Of a stretch of 40,313 bases of DNA, positions 24,401 through 32,550 are shown in pieces. This DNA comes from Neophaeotheca triangularis (lineage: Eukaryota). The notes beneath the pieces are model-generated. The model had not been told where the DNA came from. It was given only the letters and a program-made list of their open reading frames with translations, and ran no database searches. Each line of letters starts with the position of its first letter. Positions within the stretch are counted from its first letter, which is position 1. The stretch is from positions 124,001-164,313 of the forward strand of contig BAAIJX010000050.1 in the NCBI GenBank assembly GCA_054600435.1. The letters are read 5' to 3'. The position numbers and the translations under genes were made by a program.

Positions 24401-25821
24401 TCAATAGGATCTGGGCAGATCCAGCACTTTCTCGGCGATATAGTTGAGGCACATCTCCCTGCTAACAGGCGCCAGCCGCGGTATAATTACCTCTCGAAGA
24501 TACCGCTCAACATGATACCTGATCAACACAGTCAGCCATCCAAGCCCGCACCAAGTCAGCAACAAAACATCACTCACTCTTTAGCATAACCCATCCCCCC
24601 CATGGTGCAAACAGCCGTCTCACAAGCCTGAAAAGCATTCTCGCCCGCAAGATACTTGACAGCATTCGCGTACTCCCCCGTAGCGAAACCCTCATCCCAC
24701 ATCTTCGCAGCCTGCATAATCATCAACCGCGTGCTCTCAAGCTGACACCAAGCCCTAGCCAACGGATGCGCGATGCCCTGATTCATGCCAATCGGCCTGC
24801 CAAAAACCACACGCTCTCGAGCATACCGCGCCGCGACGCGGAGAGCCGCGTAGCCCAGTCCGACGGCTTCGCCGGATAACAAAATGCGTTCGGCGTTCAT
24901 GCCGTGCATGATCTGCTTGAAACCGTCGCCCTCGGCGCCTATTCGATCCGCGACGGGGACGCGCCAGCCGTCGAAATGCAGTTGATTCGTGTCCACGGCT
25001 GCGCGGCCCATTTTCTTGATTTCAGTGACGGAGACTTGGGAGCGGTCTAGGGTGGTGTAGAAGAGGGTTAGACCCTGGGAGGGCTTGGTGACTTGGTCTA
25101 GAGGTGTTGTGCGCACGAGTATTAGAATCTTTTCGGCTACTTGCGCCGTCGATGTCCAGATTTTGCTGCCTTTGAGAGTGTAGTGGTCTCCTTCGCGCAC
25201 AGCTTGCGATTGCAGTTTCAGCGTGTCGAGGCCAGTGTTGGGTTCTGTGACTGCGAAACACGATCGTTCTCTTCCTTCGATCAGAGGGACAAGGAAGCGT
25301 TCCCGTTGCTCTTCTGTGCCATATTTGACCACTGGTGCCAGACCGAATATGTTCATATGGACAGCGCTGCTCGCTGTGCCGCCGCCACCACTCTCAGAGA
25401 TTGTTTGCATCATTACTGTGGCTTCTGAGAGGCCTAGTTCGCTGCCGCCGTACGCTGAGGGCATCATGATGCCTAGCCATCCTGCTTTGGCGATGGCGTC
25501 GGAGAACTCACTGGGCCAGCGGGCTTGGTTGTCGATATCGAGCCAGTAAGAGTCTGGGAAGTTTGAGCAGATTTTGCCGATGCTTTCACGGACAGTGGCC
25601 TGTGTTTCACTGTAATCTGGAAAGATTGGAAGATATTCCGTTGCTTTCGGGATAGATGCGTTGGTATGTGATGCGTGGAAGGGAGCAATCTGCTGGCTAG
25701 GATTCCATCGTCGTGTGTAAGTCAACTTTAGCAAATCCAGATCCTCTTTTTTCGGTCCTGATATCAGTCTAGGTCGAATCCGAGGACGAACAATGTGGGT
25801 TCCAAGTCGTGTACTAGCCAT
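24401..25821 (-). CDS. Acyl-CoA dehydrogenase family protein, ~453 aa; exons 25821-24578, 24518-24401
   Basis: Motifs FAVTEPNTGLD, GSKIWTS, HGMNAERI, RVVFGRPIG and MGGMGYAKEYHVERYLRE (joined across GT-AG intron 24577-24519), ending in ...AEKVLDLPRSY. The N-terminus is Arg-rich and presequence-like. Confidence 0.95.
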
Positions 25822-25859
25822 AATAGCCTCCAAGATGACCTCCCCGGTCTGGAAATTGG

Positions 25860-25897
25860 AATCGTCAAGCTCCAATCGTCAAGCTCCAAACGTCAGC
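25860..25897. repeat. 14-bp tandem duplication (AATCGTCAAGCTCC x2 plus a degenerate third copy) in the shared ACAD/CoA-transferase upstream region
   Basis: Seen directly at 25860-25873 and 25874-25887, followed by AAACGTCAGC. Confidence 0.8.
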
Positions 25898-26231: not shown

Positions 26232-27614
26232 ATGAACATGACCAGCCGCATCGCAAGCAGGCCATCCGGCAGCAGAACCACAACGAAGGCCTTGAACAAT
26301 AAAGCGATTGCTCGCCACTCTCTCCCGGGACTCGCCACCCTCCTTGGAAAACCTTCCCGACACCATCCCCACTCCACCAAACAACAACCCTCACAAGGCC
26401 CCCTCACCGGCATAAAAATCCTCGACTTCTCCCGCATCCTCGCCGGCCCCTTTTGCACTCAAATCCTCGCCGACTACGGCGCAACTGTGACCAAAATCGA
26501 GCAACCCCTCACGGGCGACGAGACTAGGTCCTGGCAGAACGCGGGCGAAAGCTCAGCTTGGAAACAACCCGCCACGGGGCCGATGAGTCTGTACTTCGCG
26601 GCCGTAAACCGGAATAAAAGGAGTTTGACGCTGGACTTGAAGAAGCGAGAAGCGTTGGAGGTGGTGTATCGGCTTGCGGCGGAGGCGGACGTGGTTGTGG
26701 AGAATTTTGTGCCCGGGGGAGCGGAGAGGTTGGGGGTCGGGTGGGAGGCGTTATCGCAGCGGAATCCGAGGTTGGTTTATGCTTCTATTTCCGGGTATGG
26801 GGCTCAGGGACCGTATGCTGGGAGGGCGGGCTATGATGCCATTGCCGCTGCCGAGGGGGGTCTGATGCATATTACGGGCCATCCTGAGGGTGGGCCCGTG
26901 AGGCCGGGGCTGGGCATGACGGATATGTCGACGGGGTTATTTACGCATGGGGCCATTATGGCGGCGCTTTGGAGTCGTGAACGGACGGGGCGGGGCCAGA
27001 AAATCGATGCGAGTTTGTTTGAGACGCAGTTGGCGCTTATGATTAATGTCGGTGCGAGTTGGCTGAATTTGGGGGTCGAGGGGAAGAGGTATGGCGCTGC
27101 GCATCCGAGTATTGTGCCCTACAATACTTGGCAGTGCATGGATGGGGTTTGGTTGGCGCTGGCGGCGAATAATGAGAGGCAGTTTCGCGTGCTTTGTGAG
27201 CGGATTGGGAGGCCGGAATTGATAGGCGATGAGCGGTTCACTACTAACGCATTGAGGGTAGAGAATCGAGTCGCTATGGATGATATCCTAGATGAGCTCT
27301 TTGGCAGCAAGACGTCCGAGGAATGGCTGAAGATTTTCGATGGCTCTGGCCTCGCTTGTGGTCCGGTCAATACCATCCAAAAAGCCTTCGAGCATCCGCA
27401 GGCTATGGCGAGAGATATGGTACGACCGATGGAGTGGGACGCGACTAGCAGCGGTCAGTGGAAAAGTATCGGCGTGCCAGTCAAGCTAAGTGACACAAAA
27501 GGAGATATCAGACAATATCCGCCACGGCTAGGTGAGCATACTGAACATGTACTGAGCGAGGCTGGGTACAGTACCGAAGAGATAGAGAAACTTCGGACAG
27601 CCGGGGCTATATAG
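26232..27614 (+). CDS. Family III CoA-transferase (CaiB/BaiF; SUGCT-like), intronless, 460 aa
   Basis: Motifs PLTGIKILDFSRILAGP, LADYGA, NRNKRSLTLDLK, DVVVENF, SISGYG, the catalytic Asp in RAGYD and PPRLGEHT. The basic N-terminal extension is presequence-like. Confidence 0.95.
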   Translation: MNMTSRIASRPSGSRTTTKALNNKAIARHSLPGLATLLGKPSRHHPHSTKQQPSQGPLTGIKILDFSRILAGPFCTQILADYGATVTKIEQPLTGDETRSWQNAGESSAWKQPATGPMSLYFAAVNRNKRSLTLDLKKREALEVVYRLAAEADVVVENFVPGGAERLGVGWEALSQRNPRLVYASISGYGAQGPYAGRAGYDAIAAAEGGLMHITGHPEGGPVRPGLGMTDMSTGLFTHGAIMAALWSRERTGRGQKIDASLFETQLALMINVGASWLNLGVEGKRYGAAHPSIVPYNTWQCMDGVWLALAANNERQFRVLCERIGRPELIGDERFTTNALRVENRVAMDDILDELFGSKTSEEWLKIFDGSGLACGPVNTIQKAFEHPQAMARDMVRPMEWDATSSGQWKSIGVPVKLSDTKGDIRQYPPRLGEHTEHVLSEAGYSTEEIEKLRTAGAI

Positions 27615-27981: not shown

Positions 27982-29019
27982 TCAAGGGCGGGTCTCTGCG
28001 GCAGCACCGCCAGCATTGCCTACCGACTGCGGTGCCGAGTTGGCGTCTTCCTGTGTCCTTCCAAGAGGCAGGTCCGCGTTCAAAGCCGACTCCTGGCCGC
28101 TCAGCAGGGTGTGAACGGGTGCATTGAGCTTCTCCCTGCCCTTGAGGAAGTCAAGCTCCATGAGGAAAGAGAAGCCAAGGAGATCACCTCCAAGATCCTT
28201 GACCAGCTTGCCAGCCGCAGAAGCACTGCCGCCTATCGCACAACTGTTAGCCACCGTGATATCCTCTCCTCATCCAAAGCCAAAGCCAAACTCACCAGTA
28301 GCAATGATATCATCCACAATCACAACCTTCTGGCCCTTACGAATAGCATCCTTCTGAATCTGGAAGAAATCCTCGCCATATTCCTTTTTGAAACCCTCAG
28401 TAGCCACCTCACCGGGCAGCTTACCCTGCTTCCTGACCGGTACGAACGCCGCCCCGAGCCTCAACGCCAACGTAGGGCCGTACAAAAAGCCCCTACTTTC
28501 TAACCCAACGACCACATCCACCTTGCTCTGCTCGCCCGTCCCCGTGCCAAAAGCAGCATCAAACTGCAACTCCAGCGCGCGAATGAGGCTGTTGTGCAGC
28601 GTGTGCGAAGCGAAGAGGGGCATGATGTCCTCGAAGAGAATACCCTTGGAAGGGAAGTCTGGGAACTGGCGAAGGCCCTTTTTGAGGGTAACCTTCAGCC
28701 TGCTCAGCTCGTCTACCGCGCCGGGCTGTTGGGCGGAACTGGCGGCAGAGGCGGCGGACTGTCCTGCTTCGGCGGCATGGTTGGCGCTGGGGTTGCTGGC
28801 TTGCGCGGCGTTGTCGAGGAGGGTTGCGTCGGCGTGCGTGCCCGTCTTGCCGGTCGGGGGGTGGAATTTGGGATGCGGTTCCGTCGTCGTCGGGTCGGGC
28901 TTCGTGTCGGGTGGGTGCGAGGCGGTGCTGGGCTTGTCGCTCTTTTGCGTGCTGGCGGAGGTGTTGTCGGGGTGGCCGTGGGGAGGGTGCGAATCGAAGG
29001 AGACGGGTGCGCCGGACAT
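27982..29019 (-). CDS. APT1: Adenine phosphoribosyltransferase, ~324 aa; exons 29019-28296, 28232-27982
   Basis: Motifs [29 protein letters not shown] and the PRPP-binding motif [12 protein letters not shown], which is restored across intron 28295-28233 (GTGAGT...GCTAAC...TAG). Confidence 0.95.
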
Positions 29020-30415
29020 GATGAAGGTCGTGGGGGGGGGTTAAATAGTTATTATATAGCTGTCTGTGTAAAGGTGGTGCGACTGGTTATCAAGATTATC
29101 GGAAGGGATTATTTTTCTGCGTCGCAGCACAAGCCAGCCAGGTCGACGTGTTGCCCGTTAGCAAGACAGCGCGGCGCGGAAGGTTACACGTGCTCGGTAT
29201 TGCGTGCGAATTGGTGCAGATGAATGTACGCAAGCTCCCTCCCGAAGCAGACAGACGATCGAGCAGGGTGGCAAGCGTCATCAGACGAGTTCTGATGTGA
29301 GGTTTGACGACCAATAGATTGAATCGACTGACGACTGATTACTGATTGCAAAGTGTTGAGCTGCTGCAGGCGTGAGCAGTGAACCTTCTTTGTCTGTCCC
29401 GCAATGTCGATATCGCATATATACGATAAGCCGATAAGCGGCGCCATAAAGAACTGCAGTCTTGTCTTGTACTCCTGGACATTATTGCTCCGATAGGATT
29501 AAGACCAATAGAACCCCAAAACCCCTCTCGCACGGCAACAGGCGAGACGCTGCAATGCAACATCCTCCGCTTGACAGAAGCTCAACAGACGCACATGTAG
29601 ACCTGCGCACAGCGATCCCCAAGCTTTGGAAGCTCTGCTCTGCAGTGTTACGGTATCAACGCCACTGCTGCTGGGCTTCAAATTGCGGTGAAACCTTTGC
29701 TTCGTTGATGGTCATTGATCATACGATCGAGCACTTCCATGCAGGGGGAAAACGCAATTCTTCTCCCACGTCGAATGACCTGCAATCTTCAGGCTGATGC
29801 AAAAGTGGCGTCGACTTCGGTCCTGCATACTCCACTTGAGCATCGCCGGGAATCATCCCGACATGCCATATCTTTCTCGCTCACGGCTCACCGCTCCTAC
29901 ATGGACTTTAAAACCATTAGACAGCAGTACACAGCAGCTCTTACCCAGCCTACCTACTTCTCTCGTTCAGCACAAAATAACGTCACCTGTGGGCTAATAC
30001 CAGCCCATCAAAGGCGGCGAGGAATGCTCCATTGATAGTCGATTGTCAGATCTCATTGATCAACAAAACTGACACTGAAATTGTCCCTCGGATACATGCA
30101 CAAGCAGTGTTCAAAGAAAGGAAGTTATCGCAGTGAAGATCTAGTACGTGACTGCTGCCGCATTGACTATGTCTCTGAATTAGCTCATCTTCCTACTCAA
30201 TTGCGACAGTCTTGCTTCATCTCAGCACTCCGAAGAGGTCGCTGATTATTATCAAAGAAAATCAGTGGCCTCCTAAAATGAATGCAATAGCCGTGTCTCA
30301 TCATCCAAGCTAGCTGTTGAAGCGTTCTGCGTGCGGCTGGGAGTTCCTAGCCCTAGAAAAGTGTGGTCGTTGAGTGTCCATGGCAGTGGAGATGGCTAGC
30401 TAAACTGCCCATGGA

Positions 30416-32053
30416 TTACCGGCCGAACTTCCTCAACTCGAGCCAACGAAGAGGCGGAAAAACAAGGCCAGCCCAGGCGAAACCAACGTAATTCCCCATC
30501 TACACACAGCAAATATTAGCAAGATTCAAGATAGCCGGGATCCGTCGCAATCCACTCACATCAGCCCCGTAATCCCCAACCAGCCCAGCCAAAGGCCCAA
30601 TATACCAAACCTGAGCCATGCACAAGATCGAGCCGATCCAGCCTACCAGAAAAGCAACGAGCGCAGCGATCCCAACAGGCAGTTTCGAGCGATCGTCCCA
30701 AGCGTCCCAATTCCAGCCTAGCTTCTTCCAACGGCGGAAGATGAGGTGCTCTTCCAGGCTGATGACCGCCCAACTGGAGACCCAGTACCCCATCAAGGCG
30801 AGGAAGTTGGTGAAGATGTCCGCCAAATTCGAGCGTCCGGCAATCGCACAGACCGTGTAGATGATGACGCCTATGGTGTTCCAGATTACTCGAGGTATCT
30901 TTTCGGGATATCGGCCTAGTACTTGGAAGTCCACTGAGGTGGAGTAGGTTGGGGGGATCATGTTGGCAATCAGTCCGAGGGCTATGACGACGCTGCAGAA
31001 GGAGCCAAAAGTGCCAATGGGGTTGAAGCCTTCCACTATGAGCGATCCCGGTGAGACGTTGTAGGCGTTTGACCAAGCTTGATTGTTGAGGATGCCAGAG
31101 CCGAGGCCAATGCCGACCATGAACGCGAAGGAGAAGCCTAAGCTCAAACCGATCATGGTGACCGTGAAGACTTTCCAGCGAGGCGTGTGTTCTGGGTAGT
31201 AGACAAAGTAGTCCGCTGCTCCGCCGGCCCAAGTGATGGCTGCCGCCAGACACAAACTGAAGAAGGAAAGGCGATTGCCGGCGATTGTTCTAGCAGTCTC
31301 CCCCTCTGAAGGTTTTGCGTCGAGATCAAAGTTTGGGCCTGCGACCCCTGCCAGGATAGCAAGTACTATCAGCTGCGGTAGCCAAGCGTAGCGCTCGTAG
31401 AGGTGGAAGATACTGTAGCCGAACGTCGTGATGACCCACGTGATGACAGCCACGATCACAATCCCCACAATGACGCTGAGGTCCCCGCTGACACTGACAG
31501 CGCTTATGATTTGTCCAGCTACCACCGCATCAATGAGAGCGTATCCAAGGAGAACGATGATGTTTAGGATGACAACCAGCTTGGCCGGCCACCAACCCAT
31601 AGTGTAGCGTGCAAACACCATACTCCTGTTGCCACTCCTAGGGCCAAAAGTCGCAATGTACGCAGGTACTAGGGACCCGACGAGCATCCCAAAGATGGCG
31701 CAGAGGCTGCTGTCCAGGAAGCTGAGGTAAAAGACTGCAGGCCCGAGCATTCCAAGGGTGACGTTGTTGGCAACGAGGTTGAAGCTGAACCACAAGACAC
31801 CGATCTGGGAGTAGCCTAGCTGGCTGAGGTCATGGCGTTCCTCTGGCAATACACGCTGGATGCCGCGTGCTTCGAGGTTGTACCGGATCAAGACGCGCTC
31901 AAAAGCTTGGAGGTTGCGTTTAAAGGCGCCGTCTGTCGATGCAGAGTTGTTGTTGACATCGTTGGAGGTTCTGACGGTAGGCGCCAGATTTGGCGCGCCT
32001 TTCTCGACATCACGGGTGCTCCGACGAGCGGGTTGCTGAGGTTGATCCTCCAT
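30416..32053 (-). CDS. NCS1-family purine-cytosine permease-like transporter (Fcy2/Tpn1 type), ~525 aa; coding exons 32053-30560, 30499-30416; predicted thiamine/HMP-related substrate
   Basis: Motifs EARGIQRVLPEER, WFSFNL, GPRSGNRSMVFARYTMGWW, HLYERYAW, AADYFVYYP, NFLALMGYW and MAQVWYIGP, ending in PPLRWLELRKFGR after intron 30559-30500. The substrate is an inference from the riboswitch in its leader. Confidence 0.95.
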
Positions 32054-32059
32054 GGTCAC

Positions 32060-32326
32060 CTGTGAGTAGCATCAGCAAAAGTATCAACTTGTCAGGGGAG
32101 CATGATCCTTTCGCCGGCATTGTCCGGTGCAAGTTCAAGAAAGCCGTATAATCTCAGCAAGACCTTCCAGTGCTGCGCCTTCTCCGGACGATACCTAGTC
32201 TTGGGTGGAAGGGCGCAGTCAACTGGTTGAGATCGAGCACCGGCTCATGCATATACGTCTCAAGAATACCTTGACCTCTAGACATGATCCTGCCAGCTGT
32301 CATCTTTGCTGCCTGGGAAAGCGTAC
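32060..32326 (-). other. 5'-UTR intron of the NCS1 permease with two candidate 5' splice sites (GTACGC at 32326, AAG|GTATTC at 32269) and one 3' splice site (CACAG ending at 32060)
   Basis: A TTTTGCTGAT branch point and CACAG| acceptor lie 6 nt upstream of the main ATG. Two same-frame upstream ATGs (32303, 32285) sit between the two donors. Confidence 0.75.
32100..32250 (-). ncRNA. TPP (thiamine pyrophosphate) riboswitch aptamer, fungal intronic type (cis-regulatory RNA)
   Basis: The minus strand reads GCAUGA-GCCGGUGC...(long P3)...GCUGAGAUUAUACGGC-UUUCUUGAA-CUU-GCA-CCGG-ACAAUG-CCGG-CGA-AAG-GA-UCAUGC. Pairings seen by eye are P1 GCAUGA/UCAUGC, P2 GCCG/CGGC, P3 including CUGCGCC/GGCGCAG and CCAGU/ACUGG, P4 CUU/AAG and P5 CCGG/CCGG. 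The hallmark CUGAGA, AUAC and GCGAAAGGA elements are present. Confidence 0.92.
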
Positions 32327-32470
32327 TGTCGTGGAGAGGTTCTAGTGGAGGGTGTCAGTGTGAGTCTTGAGTTACGACGGGTCACTCTGAAAGGTGGGAC
32401 GCTGTTGCCAGCCTACCTGAGCCGAGTACTAGCGCTGTTCGGATTGGAAAGGTTGCTTTGGACAAGCACA

Positions 32471-32550
32471 GTGAGGTCCACGGGTGTACAGTGAGGTTTA
32501 CGGGTGTGTGGTGACGTTCCTGGGTGTGTAGTGAGGTCCGCTGGTGCATG
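32471..32550. repeat. Four-copy 20-bp imperfect tandem repeat (GTGAGGTYYNYGGGTGT-like) in the divergent promoter
   Basis: Units are gtgaggtccacgggtgtaca / gtgaggtttacgggtgtgtg / gtgacgttcctgggtgtgta / gtgaggtccgctggtgcatg. Confidence 0.85.

Follow-up and report, generated by a model that had tools for sequence, protein, structure and literature searches.

Why would the leader of a gene that encodes a presumed nucleobase permease contain an RNA with the features of a thiamine pyrophosphate (TPP) sensor? The 40,313-nucleotide (nt) stretch of DNA analyzed here (the window), from the black yeast Neophaeotheca triangularis, carries on its minus strand both a 151-nt element, at positions 32100 to 32250, and an NCS1 permease gene that opens at ATG 32053; all features below lie on that strand unless stated otherwise. 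From sequence comparison we consider it highly probable that 32250-32100 is a genuine fungal TPP aptamer residing in the leader intron of the permease gene, most likely acting as an OFF switch of the NMT1 type. The comparison set consisted of 80 metagenome loci encoding relatives of the permease (designated by L numbers). An initial annotation of the window had already proposed a TPP riboswitch in a 5'-UTR intron of an Fcy2/Tpn1-like permease, and a TPP-type aptamer in the leader of an NCS1 gene of the Fcy21/Tpn1-like branch is borne out by the PF02133 domain of the protein, by the names given to its relatives and by conservation of the element in orthologous leaders.

The aptamer and its recognition by covariance models

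The element is identified by an E-value match to the Rfam TPP model RF00059, by two class-specific covariance models and by alignment. Its P1 helix pairs GCAUGA (32250-32245) with UCAUGC (32105-32100), as read from the sequence and the alignment, and the alignment places P2 at 32244-32241 and 32146-32143, an 82-nt P3 at 32238-32157, P4 at 32133-32130 and 32111-32108, and P5 at 32127-32124 and 32117-32114. Three motifs can be read directly: CUGAGA of J3/2, the pyrimidine sensor (32157-32152), AUAC (32149-32146), and GCGAAAGGA (32114-32106), which includes the GCG of J5/4, the pyrophosphate sensor (32114-32112). Both ligand-contact motifs are present in the window. The initial annotation had given the extent of the aptamer, its P1-P5 helices and the three motifs correctly to the base. 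From G32130 to G32112 the pyrophosphate arm measures 18 nt, which keeps the G-to-G spacing described as conserved in PMC5882874.

The same architecture runs through the class, as represented by the window and 28 distinct examples. P1 is GCAUGA with UCAUGC, and P2 is (A/G)CCG with CGG(U/C), next to which stand a bulged G and then a U-A pair. After P3 come CUGAGA, AUAC, GAAC, a P4 of CUU(G) with (A)AAG, a P5 of 4 base pairs (bp), GCG, GGA and the return strand of P1. The length of P3 varies, and whole aptamers measure between 96 and 190 nt. In L026/L027 and L052 the pyrophosphate arm takes a variant form, with an additional hairpin within the loop region of P5 (for example ...GATCCCAGTAATGGGCTGCCGGCGTAATGGCCGCGCAAGGA); these loci have the lowest class-model scores (62.8 bits, and 18.2 bits for L052).

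How is an aptamer of this kind seen by the general TPP model? At the gathering score of RF00059 (54.3 bits), which is an operational threshold and not a structural feature, no match was reported in the whole window. In E-value mode the model returned 38.5 bits (E 5.1e-6, 601 nt searched) at 32192-32089, the sole credible Rfam match. The RF00059 search that the initial annotation had put forward as a check therefore gave a divided answer, positive by E-value and with the class-specific models, negative at the curated threshold (38.5 < 54.3 bits). The sub-threshold alignment misplaces P1-P3 into the distal 3' half of the long P3. Boundaries annotated from this Rfam match, at 32089-32192, would be wrong and would describe a truncated, mis-registered aptamer.

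Class-specific models place the element precisely. Model R1 is a covariance model from the MAFFT alignment A2 (29 sequences, the window and the 28 distinct examples), and model R2 is a leave-window-out covariance model from 48 orthologous metagenome leaders. R1 found one match in the window (81.8 bits), and R2, run over all 40,313 nt, found a single match at exactly 32250 to 32100, with 80.5 bits and an E-value of 3.2e-22. Applied in E-value mode to leaders with 99-nt aptamers, RF00059 itself gave 56.1 bits for L038 and 55.8 bits for L040, both above 54.3 and with the same placement of P1 and P2, against 32.8-45.5 bits for five loci with a longer P3; for L017 it returned nothing at E <= 0.01. 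At the gathering score, RF00059 reported none of the 17 loci that bear the aptamer by R1 among 20 loci searched. Because short-P3 orthologues pass and long-P3 ones fall short, the sub-threshold score of the window is attributable to the RF00059 model and the 82-nt P3 rather than to the element. At its gathering score RF00059 thus overlooks long-P3 members of this orthologous group, a limitation already published: the model is reported to fail once P3 exceeds about 60 nt (PMC11683625).

Conservation and covariation among orthologous leaders

The initial annotation had also suggested a survey of NCS1 orthologues for the same leader element, and the element proved to be widespread among them. A motif search (CTGAGA ... 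GCG.A.GGA) matched 33 of the 80 loci, 80-150 nt upstream of the coding start. With R1 the number rises to 64 of the 80, about 30 of them not caught by the motif search, and in every case the element lies upstream of the permease on its coding strand. Of the 16 loci without an R1 match, ten lie on contigs that extend no more than 109 nt upstream, and for this reason the count is better given as 64 of the 70 loci that have leader sequence. The remaining six (L020, L034, L043, L054, L058 and L059) have at least 765 nt upstream, and by R1 the aptamer is truly absent from them. Many loci are near-copies of one another; the set contains 56 distinct leaders and 26 groups sharing less than 15% of 8-mers.

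Are the loci that lack the aptamer paralogues? A quick protein tree was made to ask this question. It left out 11 rows whose longest open reading frame was shorter than 380 amino acids (L009, L012, L014, L025, L046, L048, L060, L061, L062, L063 and L069), and rows L033, L005 and L071-L078 are unreliable in it as the wrong reading frame was taken (branch length 10). Five of the six aptamer-less loci (L034, L043, L054, L058 and L059) form one group with a Shimodaira-Hasegawa-like approximate likelihood ratio (SH-aLRT) support of 92, next to the aptamer-bearing L057, and L020 stands separately, near the clade of the window. This distribution suggests that the riboswitch was lost at least twice in this gene family.

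Covariation supports the fold. Across 22 pairs of alignment A2, standard pairs occupy 90.5% of cells, compared with 28-41% once the partners are shifted by 1-3 columns. Compensatory changes occur in six pairs, and none of 500 shuffles reaches the covariation score. A model-fitted alignment of 47 distinct sequences, which by its construction leans towards the structure, is 89.5% paired and contains eight compensatory pairs. The covariation is located in P3 and P5, and P1, P2 and P4 say little because they hardly vary. The window contributes a compensatory change of its own in P5, a C-G pair where others have U-A or A-U. The element is thus a three-way junction of P1, P2-P3 and P4-P5 with covariation, and the window retains all 41 columns that are invariant in the 29-sequence alignment.

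Predicted splice sites and upstream reading frames of the leader

What would such an aptamer control? The 5' part of the leader contains two possible 5' splice sites (a slash marks the junction). The candidate distal site, S1 (ACA/GTACGC, 32326-32321), is recognized by sequence and a conserved motif and lies 76 nt upstream of the aptamer, and the proximal site, S2 (GGTCAAG/GTATTC, 32269-32268), is recognized by sequence and conservation and lies 19 nt upstream. Between them are two in-frame upstream ATGs that can be read directly (32303-32301 and 32285-32283). Downstream of the aptamer, CTRAY motifs provide two branch-site candidates within 32095-32071, CTGAC (32095-32091) and CTGAT (32075-32071), and a candidate 3' splice site AG at 32061-32060 (ACTCACAG/GTGACC ATG) is indicated by sequence and by its position in orthologues. 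This AG, which follows the branch-like CTGAT, is 40 nt from the end of the aptamer, the distance that the initial annotation had given, and the main ATG (32053-32051) follows six bases after it. The predicted intron of the window leader would be 210-267 nt, with 210 nt from S2 to the AG.

These parts recur in other leaders. Of 58 distinct leaders, 53 could be analyzed, the others being dropped for want of a main ATG (L029, L030 and L080), of a branch or 3' splice-site motif (L064) or of an S2 motif (L015). In 44 of the 53 an S1-like GTA[CA][GA] precedes the aptamer by 65-87 nt, two of the nine misses being truncated contigs, and one or more ATGs lie downstream of the S1-like motif in the leaders analyzed. 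Closer to the aptamer, at 7-32 nt upstream, all 53 have a donor-like G/GT(A/G); its most frequent form is GATCAAG/GTA, which in most orthologous leaders lies 10-20 nt upstream. Downstream of the aptamer and ahead of the 3' splice site, 52 of 53 leaders have a CTRAY, none being found in L064. The AG of the 3' splice site in orthologues comes 34-64 nt past the aptamer, and the main ATG follows it at a distance of 3-42 nt.

The geometry of the upstream open reading frames (uORFs) is also conserved. Splicing of the window leader from S2 is predicted to leave two uORFs, 27 and 21 codons long, which overlap ATG 32053 in a frame other than that of the permease and end at the TGA at 32012-32010. In 51 of 53 leaders every combination of upstream ATG and S2 produces a uORF that terminates ahead of the main ATG or crosses it in another frame; certain combinations in L039 and L047 would yield in-frame extensions.

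A segment at S2 is complementary to P4/P5

On the exon side of S2 lies a segment, UGGCAGGAUCAUGUCUAGAGGUCAAG (32295-32270), that RNAduplex finds complementary to the whole P4/P5 hairpin and that may be called an anti-aptamer. The duplex predicted for the window consists of three helices with a total of 17 bp (GGUCAAG with CUUG(C)ACC, UGUCU with GGACA and UGGCA with UGCCG) and has a predicted energy of -15.8 kcal/mol. In most leaders GAUCAAG pairs with CUUGAUC, and bases further upstream pair with the loop and the 3' strand of P5. Over 57 leaders, a few of them mis-parsed, the duplexes have a mean energy of -15.6 kcal/mol and a mean z of -2.2 relative to shuffles. The two partners co-vary: among 25 representatives the predicted pairing of the S2 flank with its own P4/P5 averages -17.7 kcal/mol, compared with -15.4 kcal/mol for P4/P5 arms of other loci, and none of 10,000 permutations was as low.

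A possible second, long-range helix would join the S1-S2 segment to the stretch that runs from the end of the aptamer as far as the main ATG. It is less general, with a mean z of -0.44 relative to shuffles (51 leaders). In a cross-locus permutation of 26 representatives, own pairs average -21.9 and cross pairs -20.5 kcal/mol (p 0.043), the window ranking 10th by row and 3rd by column. The helix is strong in some clades, reaching -35.2 kcal/mol in L045 and -40.1 kcal/mol in L065. In many leaders (L045 and its relatives L038, L040, L053, L055 and L062) the uORF contains GAGTAGCAG, and a complementary CTGCTACT(AAT) occurs in the branch region. The window has GCAGCAAAG at 32312-32304, before the first upstream ATG, and this is complementary to CTTTTGCTG at the CTGAT branch candidate (32080-32072). 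A helix of the GAGTAGCAG/CTGCTACT type could bridge the distal donor to the branch and acceptor region or could occlude the branch site; being marginal across the class, it is a lead and no more.

A proposed mechanism and its alternatives

In Neurospora crassa NMT1, P4-P5 masks the proximal 5' splice site without TPP, and the product at high TPP carries uORFs that preclude the main reading frame (PMC3597705), a mechanism termed Type I (PMC5882874). The parts of this platform, S1, upstream ATGs, S2, aptamer, 3' splice site and main ATG, are all present in the window in the right order and are conserved, at the level of sequence motifs. Because the leader matches the N. crassa NMT1 mechanism, we favor a thiamine-repressed OFF switch. 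At low TPP, the exon-side flank of S2 (32295-32270) would pair with the P4/P5 arm and mask S2, and splicing would run from S1 (GT at 32326) to the AG at 32061-32060. Splicing from S1 takes out both upstream ATGs, so that the permease would be translated. At high TPP, the aptamer would close around its ligand and release S2; splicing from S2, or none, would keep the upstream ATGs in the mRNA, and the 27- or 21-codon frame, crossing the main ATG out of frame, would block permease synthesis.

Several observations pull against this reading. RF00059 is silent at its gathering score, and the aptamer of the window deviates in one noted respect, a J4/5 that reads CA and not the AU of the Rfam consensus and of most orthologues. 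The minimum free energy (MFE) structure of the isolated aptamer (-52.9 kcal/mol; z -2.1) forms P1 and P3 and pairs CCGGUGC with GCACCGG in place of P2 and P4/P5; the constrained canonical fold lies at -50.4 kcal/mol, 2.5 kcal/mol higher, and the MFE of an isolated aptamer is uninformative for a ligand-stabilized fold. In the leader, S1 (GTACGC) is defined solely by the conserved motif. The duplex between the S2 flank and P4/P5 of the window itself is unremarkable relative to shuffles (z -0.9), and in the cross-locus test it takes 17th place of 25 by row and 3rd place by column. The RNA came from one metatranscriptome run, X1 (poly(A), aquatic; share of words 0.08), whose contigs reach only the 3' part of the gene, so that the leader junctions are predictions from the DNA sequence.

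Could the leader contain a working TPP sensor and a single intron, the 210 nt from S2 to the AG? TPP would then control retention of that intron or access to its branch site or 3' splice site, and the upstream GTACG would not be a donor. The X1 contigs, lying outside the leader, give support to neither donor, S1 has a non-consensus sequence, 9 of 53 leaders lack the S1 motif, and in some clades (L045, L065) the S1-S2 segment is strongly complementary to the branch and 3' splice-site region and could act on branch-site access. We nevertheless regard this arrangement as unlikely, since the GTA[CA][GA] motif stands at a fixed distance in 44 of 53 leaders and always upstream of the upstream ATGs, as fits a donor that removes them, since the branch-region pairing is class-wide marginal, and since the pairing of the S2 flank with P4/P5 is strongly supported.

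If instead the element were a decaying relic in N. triangularis, an aptamer-like sequence that has lost TPP binding or regulation, the CA of J4/5 would find a ready explanation, as would the 81.8 bits of the window with R1, compared with 90-105 bits for many orthologues; losses do occur in the gene family, with 6 of 70 loci lacking the element, five of them in one clade. A relic would hardly be expected to keep 41 of 41 invariant columns, all helices intact, including the compensatory C-G in P5, and the uORF geometry, S2 and the 3' splice site all in place, and we hold decay to be very improbable. That the resemblance arose by chance, or belongs to an unrelated structured intron element, is effectively refuted: the sub-threshold Rfam score would be in its favor, but the independent class model gives E 3e-22 and a single match in 40 kb, the element is syntenically conserved in 64 of 70 loci, and orthologues score above the Rfam gathering score. 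An NMT1-type switch built on a genuine TPP aptamer is the reading that we carry forward.

The permease gene and its neighbors

The permease is encoded by two exons. Coding exon 1 (30560-32053) comprises 498 codons from ATG 32053 and is defined by the list of open reading frames, by PF02133 and by protein identity. A 60-nt intron (GTGAGT...CTAAT...TAG, 30500-30559) near the 3' end of the coding sequence, with CTAAT as its branch site, is confirmed by an X1 RNA contig that joins 30499 to 30560, and coding exon 2 (30416-30499) adds 27 codons and a stop, its translation agreeing with the C-terminal consensus of the family. Three X1 contigs, 95-99% alike to the permease coding sequence, span only 30339-31105 with the 60-nt intron spliced out. 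N. triangularis or a close relative is transcriptionally active in the X1 sample.

The protein is 100% identical to a 525-amino-acid N. triangularis protein (P0001) labelled "hypothetical protein"; the relatives that come after it share 64-81% identity and go by the names purine-cytosine permease FCY21/fcyB, vitamin B6 transporter or NCS1 nucleoside transporter. It matches PF02133, described in Pfam as "permease for cytosine/purines, uracil, thiamine, allantoin", with 59.9 bits against a cut-off of 23.5. It scores 152.9 bits with the NCS1 subfamily model TIGR00800, below the cut-off of 353.1, and 30.4 bits with the CytX equivalog TIGR02358 ("putative hydroxymethylpyrimidine transporter"), far from the NCBIfam cut-off of 309.85, which places it outside that equivalog. 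A sequence search of the permease against solved structures gave no match at E <= 0.01. With PF02133, the names of the relatives and the conservation of the leader element in 64 of 70 loci taken together, it is reasonable to link the transporter to thiamine metabolism, and the permease may serve in the uptake of thiamine or of a thiamine precursor.

The product of the next gene downstream (28270-29019) has a long N-terminal region of low complexity and, after it, a phosphoribosyltransferase domain (PF00156, 39.6 bits); beyond this gene lie genes for a CoA-transferase III (26232-27614, plus strand) and an acyl-CoA dehydrogenase (24574-25875, minus strand). No thiamine link was found among the neighbors (phosphoribosyltransferase, CoA-transferase III, acyl-CoA dehydrogenase and HsbA). 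On the other side of the gene, a 20-nt tandem repeat of 3.5 copies with 76% matches (32470-32539; plus-strand consensus AGTGAGGTCCACGGGTGTGT) lies about 150-210 nt upstream of candidate S1, in the presumed permease promoter or 5' untranslated region.

Relation to known riboswitches and transporters

Is this a new kind of riboswitch? The initial annotation implied as much, and the literature corrects it: Fcy21/Tpn1-like genes with TPP riboswitches have been reported from 2018 onwards (PMC5997356, PMC5882874, PMC8786325, PMC11683625). Such riboswitches are described in Tpn1-/Fcy21-like genes of Stagonospora nodorum, Xylona heveae and Aspergillus nidulans (AN4526.2), with Moldovan et al. cited for more (PMC5997356), and an Ascomycota "nucleoside transporter" class is described as acting by alternative splicing with a uORF or internal stop (PMC5882874). 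The class bears the name TPPsw-NUC (PMC8786325, PMC11683625), and the examples in these papers, dated 2018-2024, are A. nidulans AN4526.2, the third riboswitch of A. oryzae, S. nodorum and X. heveae. The window element shares with the published members the gene family (PF02133) and the position in a leader intron, and the splicing and uORF or stop control described for them has its counterpart in the matching uORF geometry of the window sequence. The only differences are the species, N. triangularis, and the "hypothetical protein" label that the protein carries there. By these sequence features the element is a TPPsw-NUC member, of a kind already described.

The closest mechanistic parallel, NMT1 (THI5-type), likewise has its aptamer in an intron upstream of the main reading frame, and all the sequence prerequisites of its mechanism are found in the window. 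The genes differ, NMT1 being a hydroxymethylpyrimidine phosphate (HMP-P) synthase and the window gene a transporter. The complementary segments differ too: that of the window is located within the uORF and is predicted to match the loop of P4/P5 as well as its two strands.

For a transporter precedent the initial annotation had turned to N. crassa NCU01977, which does not serve as one for an NCS1 gene with a riboswitch in its 5' untranslated region. NCU01977, like Candida DUR31, is a transporter gene whose splicing is controlled by a TPP riboswitch, but it belongs to the solute-carrier-5/SSF family and not to NCS1 (PMC5997356), and the riboswitch lies inside the coding region, in an intron of 650-900 nt, where it acts through a long-range alpha-alpha' helix with the P1 shoulder (Type II; PMC5882874, PMC3597705). 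DUR31 is a proven thiamine importer (PMC5997356). The gene of the window, by contrast, is an NCS1 gene, and its intron is predicted to be 210-267 nt long and lies in the leader, which leaves it outside Type II; the test for a bridging helix was marginal (p 0.043).

CytX genes lie behind THI-box riboswitches. Bacterial CytX, plant NCS1/PLUTO and yeast Thi7 share the NCS1 superfamily with the permease of the window, although it resembles CytX only weakly (30.4 bits). Hydroxymethylpyrimidine (HMP) is reported as a cargo of plant NCS1, bacterial homologues are found clustered with thiamine genes, and thiamine is carried by yeast Thi7 (PMC7200797). Thi7, a member of the Fur branch, is absent from Pezizomycotina (PMC5997356). 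In the literature searched, we found no substrate or uptake assay for the riboswitch-bearing fungal Fcy21-like clade. It is a tentative and rather doubtful suggestion that this Fcy21/Tpn1-like clade could be the fungal counterpart of CytX and plant NCS1/PLUTO, a salvage importer of HMP or another thiamine-related compound rather than of thiamine or nucleobases. Its leader might also combine NMT1-type masking with a second, clade-variable helix, from distal donor to acceptor or occluding the branch site in the manner of the NCU01977 alpha-alpha' helix.

What does the element mean for this gene family? It is real and well conserved, but ordinary. For annotation, a gene filed under "hypothetical protein", with relatives called purine-cytosine permease or vitamin B6 transporter, would join the set of thiamine-responsive genes. 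The NCS1 transporter, predicted to be regulated by TPP, is widespread.

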